Below are positions 46,641-47,505 of a DNA stretch of 64,000 bases, one piece after another (the first letter of the stretch is position 1; every line of letters starts with the position of its first letter). The stretch comes from a virus, in UHGV virus genome UHGV-0117634; one strand, 5' to 3'. The notes under the pieces were generated by a model. The model saw nothing but the letters and a program-made list of their open reading frames with translations. It ran no database searches and was not told where the DNA came from. Position numbers and translations under genes: made by a program.

Positions 46641-46775
46641 TTACCAGACCGTATTTATCTTAAGTGCTTCCATTACACCAACACGCCGTAACGTGTGAAG
46701 GATTCGAACCTTCGCCTTTTCTTTATAAGAGAAATAGATTGTTTATTGTTTGCTGTAAACGGTCTTCTGTAAAAT
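46641..46775 (-). ncRNA. Candidate Y-RNA-like (YrlA-like) structured RNA: long-range stem enclosing a tRNA-like T-arm
   Basis: CCAGACCGT (46645) pairs with ACGGTCTTCTG (46759); enclosed hairpins TTTCT-CTTATAA-AGAAA, GAAGG-TTCGAAT-CCTTC, ACACG-TTACGG-CGTGT; no acceptor stem. Confidence 0.35.
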
Positions 46776-46780
46776 TGTTG

Positions 46781-46862
46781 GAACCAGACCAAGTTTTAAA
46801 TTTTTCAAATTAAATTGGCTTGAAATATTAAAATTGCTTGCTGTATTTGGTCTTCTGCTCCT
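46781..46862 (-). ncRNA. Repeated bipartite structured element, unit 2 (CCAGACC ... TTGCTGTATTTGGTCTTCTG)
   Basis: Second copy of the conserved 25-nt B-motif with upstream complementary A-motif; no T-arm inside. Confidence 0.3.
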
Positions 46863-46943
46863 TTAAAGAATACTCGTAAGAACTCTTTAAGGGAGGGGCT
46901 AAAAAGCCCTCTCAAACATCATTTTGAAATACTTATTATAATT

Positions 46944-47020
46944 TGGCGGTTACGAAGGGAATCGAACCCTCATCTTCCTCCGTGACAGGGAGGTATTTTA
47001 TCCAGTTAAACTACATAACC
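46944..47020 (-). tRNA. tRNA-Asp (anticodon GTC)
   Basis: Anticodon arm CCTCC-CTGTCAC-GGAGG, T-arm GAGGG-TTCGATT-CCCTT, CCA. Confidence 0.75.
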
Positions 47021-47026
47021 TTTATT

Positions 47027-47114
47027 TGGTGCGCCGTGAAGGAGTCGAACCTACCGAGTCATAATGACAAGTGATTTACAGTCACCACCGCTTCCATCTA
47101 CGGGATAACGACGC
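47027..47114 (-). tRNA. tRNA-Tyr (anticodon GTA), class II
   Basis: Acceptor GCGTCGT/ACGGCGC, anticodon loop CTGTAAA, long variable arm, T-loop TTCGACT, CCA. Confidence 0.7.
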
Positions 47115-47183
47115 ATTTTATTCTATTCAGGCTAAGGACTTGCACCTTACAAATCGGTGAGCAATCGCTTCTCTCCCAAATCT

Positions 47184-47260
47184 TGGCGGTTAGTCAGGGA
47201 TTCGAACCCTGTGCCATTCGGTTAACAGCCGACCGCACATGCCTTATGTGCTTCCTAACC
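47184..47260 (-). tRNA. tRNA-Asn (anticodon GTT)
   Basis: Anticodon loop CTGTTAA, T-arm CAGGG-TTCGAAT-CCCTG, CCA. Confidence 0.7.
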
Positions 47261-47267
47261 ATGTTAG

Positions 47268-47340
47268 TATTACCAGACCGTATCTTTTCATTTTTTTCCG
47301 ATAAAAAATTTTGAGTGTTTGCTGTAAACGGTCTTCTGTA
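47268..47340 (-). ncRNA. Repeated bipartite structured element, unit 3 (CCAGACCGT ... TTTGCTGTAAACGGTCTTCTG)
   Basis: 7-bp stem AGACCGT/ACGGTCT enclosing an AT-rich 45-nt loop; fills the whole spacer between two tRNAs. Confidence 0.3.
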
Positions 47341-47344
47341 AATT

Positions 47345-47421
47345 TGGAGGCGGGTGTAGGAGTCGAACCTACCGATACCATGCTAATGAGACATGTGAGA
47401 CGCCCTTTCTCTATACCCGCA
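47345..47421 (-). tRNA. tRNA-Met (anticodon CAT), second copy, 1-72 mismatch
   Basis: Anticodon arm CATGT-CTCATTA-GCATG, T-arm GTAGG-TTCGACT-CCTAC, CCA; T1-C72 mismatch may mark an initiator-type tRNA. Confidence 0.65.
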
Positions 47422-47427
47422 ATTCTT

Positions 47428-47505
47428 AATGACCAGACTAAATCTTTTTTGGATTTCTATGCGCGAAATTGAAAAATTTGTTTGCTGTAATTGGTCTTCT
47501 GTCAA
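47428..47505 (-). ncRNA. Repeated bipartite structured element, unit 4 (GACCAGAC ... TTTGCTGTAATTGGTCTTCTG)
   Basis: Fourth copy of the B-motif with upstream complementary GACCA; fills the spacer between tRNA-Met and tRNA-Glu. Confidence 0.3.

Follow-up and report, generated by a model that had tools for sequence, protein, structure and literature searches.

Candidate small RNAs of a Y-RNA-like family in a phage tRNA cluster beside a gene for a Ro60-fold protein

Introduction

YrlA-type Y RNAs (RF02553) have Rsr/Ro60 as their protein partner and carry the motif GNCGAAN0-1G/GGUCCGA in the 5′ strand, and Salmonella encodes Rsr together with YrlA and YrlB (Chen et al. 2014, PMC4201824). In the Thermus phage phiLo, a canonical Ro60 binds two adjacent Y-like RNAs (Yrl1/Yrl2) and the host PNPase (PMC12135203; PDB 9KOP, 9L5Y), which by analogy is a phage precedent for the arrangement described here. 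We analysed a stretch of 64,000 nucleotides (nt) from the virus genome UHGV-0117634, referred to below as the window, which belongs to a phage of the Mooglevirus/Felixounavirus type and contains four repeated units, A to D, in a tRNA cluster. In our judgement it is likely that each of the four units encodes a small non-coding RNA belonging to a new, phage-wide family that resembles Y RNAs, that these RNAs partner a divergent Ro60-like protein encoded immediately upstream, and that tRNA processing frees them from the tRNA operon.

A second point of reference is found in social amoebae. Class I RNAs (RF01414; Aspegren 2004; Kjellin et al. 2021, PMC7919456), found in 2004, are abundant RNAs of 42-65 nt that affect development; they were reported to be restricted to Dictyostelia and have been thought unique to social amoebae. 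Their ends are joined by a stem of 6 base pairs (bp), the 11-nt motif CCUUACAGCAA with near-invariant positions U3, C6, C9, A10 and A11 stands beside the 5′ strand, and the RNAs start with AAG and end with CUGU (PMC7919456). The protein family encoded beside our units, DUF2828, is mentioned in plant papers and in connection with mimivirus-like proteins. Within the searchable literature (DUF2828, the motif string, Ro-like phage proteins and tRNA clusters) we found neither a function nor an RNA partner for the DUF2828-family proteins of phages, and no earlier description of the RNA family, which as far as this literature shows is both widespread in phages and undescribed.

Results

Four units share a closing helix and a motif

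A preliminary description of the window had claimed four copies of a conserved motif in the tRNA spacers, each with a complementary partner upstream on the plus strand. Both claims held. The 24-nt pattern TTGYTTGCTGTAWWYGGTCTTCTG matched the plus strand at 46746-46769, 46834-46857, 47315-47338 (one mismatch) and 47478-47501, four matches compared with 0.00 expected from 100 shuffles of the window, and partners were found 5′ of all four on the same strand, CCAGACC(GT) at 46644-46652, 46786-46792 and 47275-47283 and GACCAGAC at 47430-47437. The strand had to be corrected: all 25 tRNAs detected by ARAGORN in the window lie on the minus strand and the promoter-like sites upstream have the same orientation, so that the transcribed sense of the units is the reverse complement. 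The stems had been given as 5-7 bp, and here the pairing stood while its extent changed, since the units have a 7-bp inner helix (6/7 pairs in unit D) and a 4-bp outer helix. The conservation beyond the needs of base pairing, also pointed out earlier, corresponds to an unpaired (U/A)UACAGCAA that directly follows the helix's 5′ strand.

Written as RNA, the units have the layout 5′-(4-bp outer helix)-AGA-AGACCRU-(U/A)UACAGCAA-variable-AYGGUCU-G-(outer helix)-3′. An AGA/G internal loop separates the inner helix AGACCRU/AYGGUCU, which has one mismatch in unit D, from the outer helix, and UUACAGCAA or AUACAGCAA stands at the same place in 4/4 units. The features were placed with covariance models and folds, all on the minus strand. 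Unit D (47430..47504), a putative small RNA gene between tRNA-Glu and tRNA-Met, has the outer helix UGAC/GUCA (47504-47501 with 47433-47430), the inner helix AGACCAA/UUAGUCU with one C·A mismatch (47497-47491 with 47441-47435) and the motif UUACAGCAA (47490-47482). Unit C (47270..47341), likewise a putative small RNA gene, lies between tRNA-Met and tRNA-Asn and has the outer helix UUAC/GUAA (47341-47338 with 47273-47270), the inner helix AGACCGU/ACGGUCU (47334-47328 with 47281-47275), the motif UUACAGCAA (47327-47319) and a small U6/A6 hairpin in its variable part. In unit B (46781..46860), the third putative small RNA gene, the outer helix is GAGC/GUUC (46860-46857 with 46784-46781), the inner helix AGACCAA/UUGGUCU (46853-46847 with 46792-46786) and the motif AUACAGCAA (46846-46838). 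Unit A (46641..46772) would give a longer RNA, closed by the same helices and carrying the same motif; its outer helix, UUAC/GUAA as in unit C, is formed by 46772-46769 with 46644-46641, its inner helix by 46765-46759 with 46652-46646, and its motif is at 46758-46750.

Depending on where the ends are placed, units B to D measure ~60-80 nt and unit A ~130 nt. The interiors have diverged fully, while the helices and the motif are kept. Units in the window begin 3-4 nt after the upstream tRNA and stop 8-9 nt before the next one, and units C and D do fill the tRNA-Asn/tRNA-Met and tRNA-Met/tRNA-Glu spacers, as the preliminary description had stated for its units 3 and 4. In Shigella phage Sf13, the closest annotated relative (97% identical in this region), the corresponding spacers are unannotated. 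We also considered the motif as a promoter and as a terminator and rejected both, the former on a single weak match (9/12, 46773-46745) with no consistent -10 element across the units, and the latter because no U-tract was found after the helices.

The elements covary and accompany the DUF2828 gene in distant phages

For comparison, 80 viral loci (loci are given by L numbers below) were chosen by protein homology alone, each oriented with the DUF2828 gene on the plus strand, 974 kb in total. The gene strand has 124 copies of the 8-mer TACAGCAA and the opposite strand 10, the latter close to the ~15 per strand that we estimate for chance with an 8-mer in 974 kb, and the copies were concentrated at the ends of the DUF2828 gene. 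The DUF2828 proteins of the element-bearing phages are only 30-45% identical. Their elements show the same architecture with unrelated stems (AGAGAGCU...AGCUCUCU, GGUUCC...GGAACC, GGGACGAC...GUCGUCCC), always start with (A/U)(A)G and always end with C(U)G, and the phage-wide core of the motif is UUNCAGCAA.

We aligned 29 short elements of equal flank lengths from diverse phages (alignment A3) and found that a G-C pair (G6-C71), an unpaired G following the 3′ strand (G73) and the sequence ACAGCAA are all invariant. Double compensatory changes were present in 7 of the 8 stem pairs tested, and 7 pairs were retained in the model. The covariation score was 0.907, compared with 0.22 after shuffling (0/500 reached the observed value) and 0.12-0.18 with a slid register; the covariation of the stem is strong. 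Furthermore, the outer helix of Felixounavirus-type elements was paired at 4/4 positions in 56/56 instances, with six pair combinations.

A covariance model built from A3 (R1) was used to scan the window with filters off. The only four significant matches were the four units, the next best reaching 16 bits: units B, C and D scored 48.9, 61.1 and 54.6 bits (E 2.7e-11 for D) as members of the training set, and unit A scored 32.9 bits (E 9.2e-6) although it lay outside that set. Across the 80 loci R1 gave 96 matches at E≤0.1, 96/96 on the gene strand, in ~50 loci and mostly within ~450 nt of the gene, and it recovered the motif variants UUUCAGCAA and UUGCAGCAA, which the exact-word scan had missed. 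Four lineages outside the training set all had significant R1 matches on the gene strand less than 400 nt from the gene, namely Listeria phage AG20 (42.7, 38.4 and 23.6 bits), Campylobacter phage QDYZ (36.8 and 33.3 bits), Mycobacterium phage Lolly9 (32.8 and 24.8 bits) and Enterococcus phage phiSHEF16 (28.5 bits). The covarying terminal stem, the conserved motif and the recurrence beside the same gene in distant phages support the "new small-RNA family" that had been offered as one of three options.

The neighbouring gene encodes a protein with a predicted Ro60 fold

The gene upstream of the units (47839..49254, minus strand) encodes a 471-amino-acid protein with DUF2828 and DUF7788 domains that matches PHROG 850, 'RNA-binding protein'; the units lie 335-2600 nt downstream of it on the same strand. 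AlphaFold run on the single sequence gave an unusable model (predicted local distance difference test, pLDDT, 37.8), and an alignment of 61 sequences was required. The model obtained with these 61 homologues (pLDDT 90.2, predicted template-modelling score 0.89) consists of a HEAT-repeat ring followed by a vWA domain with the DxSxS MIDAS motif D279/S281/S283, a motif that is invariant across the DUF2828 family alignment. When it was compared with the PDB using Foldseek, the top 12/12 matches were Ro60/TROVE structures over the full length (E 1.5e-8, template-modelling score up to 0.66), and the remaining matches covered the vWA domain only; phmmer of the sequence against the PDB found nothing meaningful. 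Because the Ro60 fold matches while the TROVE sequence model is not reached, the protein, judged by its modelled structure, has a Ro60 fold but belongs to a sequence family of its own, and we propose it as the RNA partner.

A consensus scan placed two strong sigma-70-like promoter candidates on the minus strand between this gene and the cluster of tRNAs and candidate RNAs, TTGACA-17-TAATAT at 47820-47792 (10/12) and TTGACA-18-TATAGT with a TG at 47730-47701 (11/12), which are consensus matches and not functional evidence. Proteins of the DUF2828 family were found by tblastn in at least 705 of 50,697 phage records. Their carriers include Felix O1-like, KVP40-like, Listeria A511-like, Staphylococcus, Campylobacter, Enterococcus, Bacillus and Aeromonas phages as well as mycobacteriophages, and some mycobacteriophage annotations already read 'Ro-like RNA binding protein'.

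Unit A contains a permuted tRNA-like module

A tRNA-like module, which the preliminary description did not mention, was found within unit A. Along the minus strand its fold places an anticodon-like arm (46734-46718), a T arm GAAGGUUCGAAUCCUUC (46713-46697), a closed acceptor-like hairpin (46696-46681) and a D-like arm (46679-46663), the arm order of a circularly permuted tRNA with a canonical T arm, and the Rfam tRNA model scored 30.9 bits at 46689-46763. Chen et al. (PMC4201824) described the same layout for YrlA. The acceptor-like hairpin covaries among relatives (ACACG/CGUGU, CCCUUC/GAAGGG, CUCG/CGAG), GCCA follows the acceptor 3′ strand in L001, L017 and L049, and comparable inserts were found in L017, L037, L049, L065 and L071. 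The Rfam YrlA model (gathering score 69 bits) matched none of the window units and stayed below threshold in the relatives, with 38.2 bits (E 6.6e-5) in L017 at most and 32.9 bits in L071. Unit A contains a GGCGAAG that overlaps the T stem and that relatives do not keep; L003, for example, has GGAGAAGG.

The elements resemble dictyostelid Class I RNAs

RF01414 was the sole non-tRNA Rfam family that matched the units. Units C and D scored 24.2 and 16.3 bits and the elements of L071 and L074 scored 29.1 and 26.4 bits, all short of the gathering score of 41.5. The phage elements keep U3, C6, C9, A10 and A11 of the Class I motif, and position 5, which is not among the near-invariant positions given in PMC7919456, varies in phages also. 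The two consensus descriptions are near-identical: the RNAs start with (A)AG, their terminal stem of 6-7 bp contains an invariant G-C pair, (C)UUACAGCAA directly follows the 5′ strand, the interior varies, and the 3′ end is stem-CUG(U). G1, C81, U82 and G83 are invariant or nearly so in 32 Dictyostelid RNAs, as G6-C71 and G73 are invariant in the 29 phage elements. A covariance model built from these 32 Dictyostelid RNAs only (R2) ranked unit C first in the window (26.6 bits, E 1.4e-4), unit A second (E 0.017), unit D third (18.4 bits, E 0.018) and unit B sixth (12.6 bits). In 70 phage loci R2 gave 29 matches at E≤1, the best with 36.2 bits (E 6e-6), and 27 of them were on the gene strand and coincided with R1 elements. 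Since RF01414 matches the units and R2 finds the phage elements, the similarity is statistically real in both directions; descent, horizontal transfer or convergence on homologous proteins may underlie it.

Some dictyostelid members, as published, are 85-140 nt long. Among the longer Class I members, DdR-66, DdR-67 and DpuR-27 to DpuR-30 have a common internal module, GGUGUAGAAUAGGUGGGAG...GUGAAAUACCACCAC (PMC7919456, supplement 48). The T-arm sequence GGUUCGAnUCC was found in three members, asu_can_20, ppa_can_99 and DpuR-22. The common module of the longer members presumably resembles a segment of large-subunit rRNA, and together with the T-arm members it suggests that Class I interiors mimic cellular RNAs.

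Other features of the tRNA cluster and of related loci

Unit A is separated from tRNA-Lys(UUU) by a 150-nt spacer (46490-46645, minus strand) that folds with a long closing helix of ~23 bp (minimum free energy -49 kcal/mol, z -5.1, 0/200 shuffles equally stable). The helix is kept in five Felixounavirus-type relatives with 6 compensatory pairs and a divergent interior, and no Rfam family matched the spacer; it may be another non-coding RNA or a processing helix of the RNase III type. A tRNA-Tyr (GUA) with a long variable arm (47025-47112, minus strand) was missed by ARAGORN and is annotated in Sf13 (weak Rfam tRNA match, 22.8 bits, 47032-47112). The 71-nt spacer between it and tRNA-Asn (47113-47183, minus strand) has a T-arm-like hairpin, UAAGG-UGCAAGU-CCUUA, is of unremarkable fold stability (z -1.1) and is matched by no model; it may be the remnant of a tRNA. 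Three hairpins, including a perfect 9-bp one, CUUUAAAGA/UCUUUAAAG, were found at 46858-46943 (minus strand), where the stretch separating tRNA-Asp from unit B is far more stable than its shuffles (z -3.96). A 137-amino-acid open reading frame within the tRNA cluster (44373-44786, minus strand) has a weak match to HNH endonucleases (E 0.0011) and is probably a homing endonuclease gene, comparable to segB in the T4 tRNA region.

In one group of viral metagenome contigs (L019 at 7864, L022 at 7861, L024 at 2997, L028 at 4801, L033 at 7476 and others) a second conserved element lies ~60 nt past the first, a small hairpin GGUAC-AGCAAAA(A)-GUACC in which AGCAAA would be presented in the loop. Within a few kb of the DUF2828 gene there are also phage tmRNA genes (L077 9710-10201; L058 11287-11706) and a group I intron (L071 8800-9042).

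Discussion

The partnership of small RNAs and Ro60-fold protein that we favour would take the following form. The 5′ and 3′ ends of each RNA would pair into the closing helix, with its invariant G-C pair and the unpaired G after the 3′ strand, and the junction of this helix with the single-stranded (U)UNCAGCAA right after the 5′ strand is the proposed protein-binding site. The remainder of the RNA would be a variable 'effector' module that recruits or mimics substrates, in unit A a permuted tRNA mimic comparable to YrlA. The units would be co-transcribed with the tRNA operon, and because they fill the inter-tRNA spacers almost exactly, we suggest that they are released when RNase P and the tRNA 3′-end enzymes excise the flanking tRNAs. 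The resulting ribonucleoprotein (RNP) would act on structured RNA, most likely tRNA, during infection, and by analogy its role is probably quality control, repair or turnover of damaged or misfolded RNA.

Several points weigh against this proposal. What the data show is the motif with its helices, the covariation, the linkage in strand and position to the DUF2828 gene of distant phages and the Ro60 fold of the modelled protein; physical binding between RNA and protein, the processing route and the biological role are inferred. In the Pfam scan of the 471-amino-acid protein (E≤0.01) only DUF2828 and DUF7788 were found and TROVE was not reached, and a profile search against PDB sequences gave marginal Ro60 matches (E 0.35-1.5). 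The single-sequence folds of the units barely exceed shuffled stability (z -0.7 to -1.5), so that the support for them comes from comparative data and not from thermodynamics. The Ro-binding motif known from Y RNAs is missing, and in ~30 of the 80 loci R1 had no match at E≤0.1. In addition, the A3 elements were partly selected for the stem, which inflates the percentage of paired positions; such selection leaves the fixed register, the strand bias and the out-of-sample matches unexplained.

The best-surviving alternative, that the elements are no independent RNAs and serve the DUF2828 mRNA solely in cis, as autoregulatory operators or as stabilisers in the 3′ untranslated region, seems unlikely to us. 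In many lineages the element stands directly past the stop codon or overlaps the ribosome-binding site, and mini-elements of 34-76 nt were found in the leader of the DUF2828 gene (L015 5966-6005, KVP40-like; L018 ~5922-6005; L025 5950-5985; L016 2328-2363; L029 5942-5985; L084 3901-3976). The KVP40 mini-element, GACAUU-UUACAGCAA...GAGGA...AAUGUC, holds the Shine-Dalgarno sequence in its loop and the start codon within its 3′ strand, and such leader copies suggest the layout expected for translational autorepression by a motif-binding DUF2828 protein, which also speaks for the partnership that we favour. In the window, however, two strong predicted promoters and two tRNAs stand between the gene and the nearest unit, the tRNAs surrounding the units are cut out, and several copies per genome together with tRNA-like modules fit RNAs that act in trans. 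The two roles are compatible, and the copies in the leaders may act as operators by imitating the free RNAs.

The preliminary description had also offered tRNA-processing signals, that is, cis-acting sites for RNase E, RNase P or RNase III in the tRNA operon whose spacers would be discarded, and this we give only a small chance of being right. It would suit the position of the elements, which in L020 and L074 as in the window occupy the inter-tRNA spacers almost exactly, and cleavage at the flanking tRNAs is needed regardless. Yet 16 of 31 element loci have no tRNA within ~6 kb in the fetched flanks and still carry the element beside the DUF2828 gene, most spacers of the 25-tRNA cluster lack the motif, and in the T4 tRNA cluster including rnaC and rnaD, a 10-kb region with no annotated DUF2828-type gene, the best R1 score was 10.3 bits (E 0.79). 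Because so many element loci have no tRNA nearby and the T4 cluster has no element, the elements do not behave as tRNA-processing signals; nor would a cleavage site have any need to carry a tRNA-like module or to keep a 9-nt motif from Listeria to Mycobacterium phages.

The third option, Rsr-binding helices, was right in spirit and not in detail, since the likely partner is the Ro60-fold protein of the phage itself. That the RNAs target the host Rsr instead, as decoys or hijackers, we regard as very improbable. Salmonella, which has Rsr with YrlA and YrlB (PMC4201824), is among the recorded host genera of related phages, and the layout of unit A is YrlA-like; on the other hand, the conserved motif differs from the Rsr/Ro motif GNCGAAN0-1G, the Rfam YrlA model misses the window units, and the elements track the phage gene in Listeria, Campylobacter and Mycobacterium hosts. 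A reading of the copies as recent duplications or selfish repeats without function, conserved only because they are young, is scarcely credible and already contradicted by covariation and cross-lineage recurrence: four similar copies do lie within 900 nt and the same tRNA cluster has an HNH endonuclease reading frame, but the interiors have diverged completely around the kept helices and motif, the helices show compensatory changes within and between genomes, and the same architecture recurs with unrelated stems beside proteins only 30-45% identical.

If the units are RNAs that partner the Ro60-fold protein, a conserved partner RNA together with a Ro60 fold would make DUF2828 proteins a testable RNP, one whose work in infection is probably connected with repairing tRNA or with the quality control of RNA, and the Ro60/Y-RNA paradigm would be extended to a second, sequence-unrelated recognition motif. 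The RNA genes would sit in spacers that automated annotation overlooks. A link to Class I, if true, would provide the first mechanistic lead for an RNA class that has been an orphan for 20 years, and it would call into question both the dictyostelid specificity of these RNAs and their tie to multicellularity.

The Class I RNAs are almost identical to the phage elements in consensus. We tentatively entertain, at somewhat less than even chances, the idea that they are the eukaryotic branch of the same RNA family, that their true core partner is a DUF2828-type Ro60-like protein (first candidate DDB_G0281243), and that DUF2828 proteins with (U)UACAGCAA RNAs form a second Ro60/Y-RNA-like RNP lineage shared by descent or horizontal transfer among phages, giant viruses and eukaryotes. 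Neither DDB_G0281243 nor DUF2828 signature words were found in the searchable parts of the Dictyostelium proteome supplements. Class I RNAs differ in being eukaryotic RNAs, reported from Dictyostelia only, with their own DUSE promoter ~60 nt upstream, and the one protein proven to bind them is the RRM protein Rnp1A/CIBP. A DUSE promoter is implausible for the phage units, because these directly follow tRNA genes in a bacterial-type operon.

The T4 species 1 and 2 RNAs (rnaC, rnaD) are likewise small stable RNAs, of unassigned function, annotated within a phage tRNA cluster, and they are released by tRNA processing. We rejected them as relatives of the units, as they have no relation in sequence or structure (the R1 score of 10.3 bits, E 0.79, given above). 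The phiLo system differs in its canonical TROVE protein and in RNAs with a CGAA motif, with no described link to a tRNA cluster or to ACAGCAA (PMC12135203).

Compared with YrlA, the phage protein is DUF2828/DUF7788 and not Pfam TROVE, the phage motif is (U)UNCAGCAA after the 5′ strand with no conserved GNCGAAN0-1G, the Rfam score is at most 38 bits against a threshold of 69 with the window units unmatched, and the phage units would arise from a tRNA operon. The likenesses are that the phage RNAs too are same-strand neighbours of a gene for a Ro60-fold protein and pair their 5′ with their 3′ ends, that at least one RNA per genome has a tRNA-like module, in which T and D arms flank a closed acceptor-like hairpin as in unit A, and that links to RtcB and tRNA genes are seen in some phage relatives. 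The DUF2828 gene of Listeria phage AG20 lies between a tRNA cluster and a gene for an RtcB 'tRNA splicing ligase'. The upstream cluster has 13 tRNAs, and just downstream of the DUF2828 gene (L083) are genes for a metal-dependent phosphohydrolase (6069-6500), the RtcB-type ligase (6707-8014) and a 'tRNA amidotransferase' (9024-9455), so that the neighbourhood resembles one for RNA repair. In bacteria rsr-yrlBA-rtcBA forms an RNA-repair operon, and it is this layout that the arrangement in AG20 recalls.

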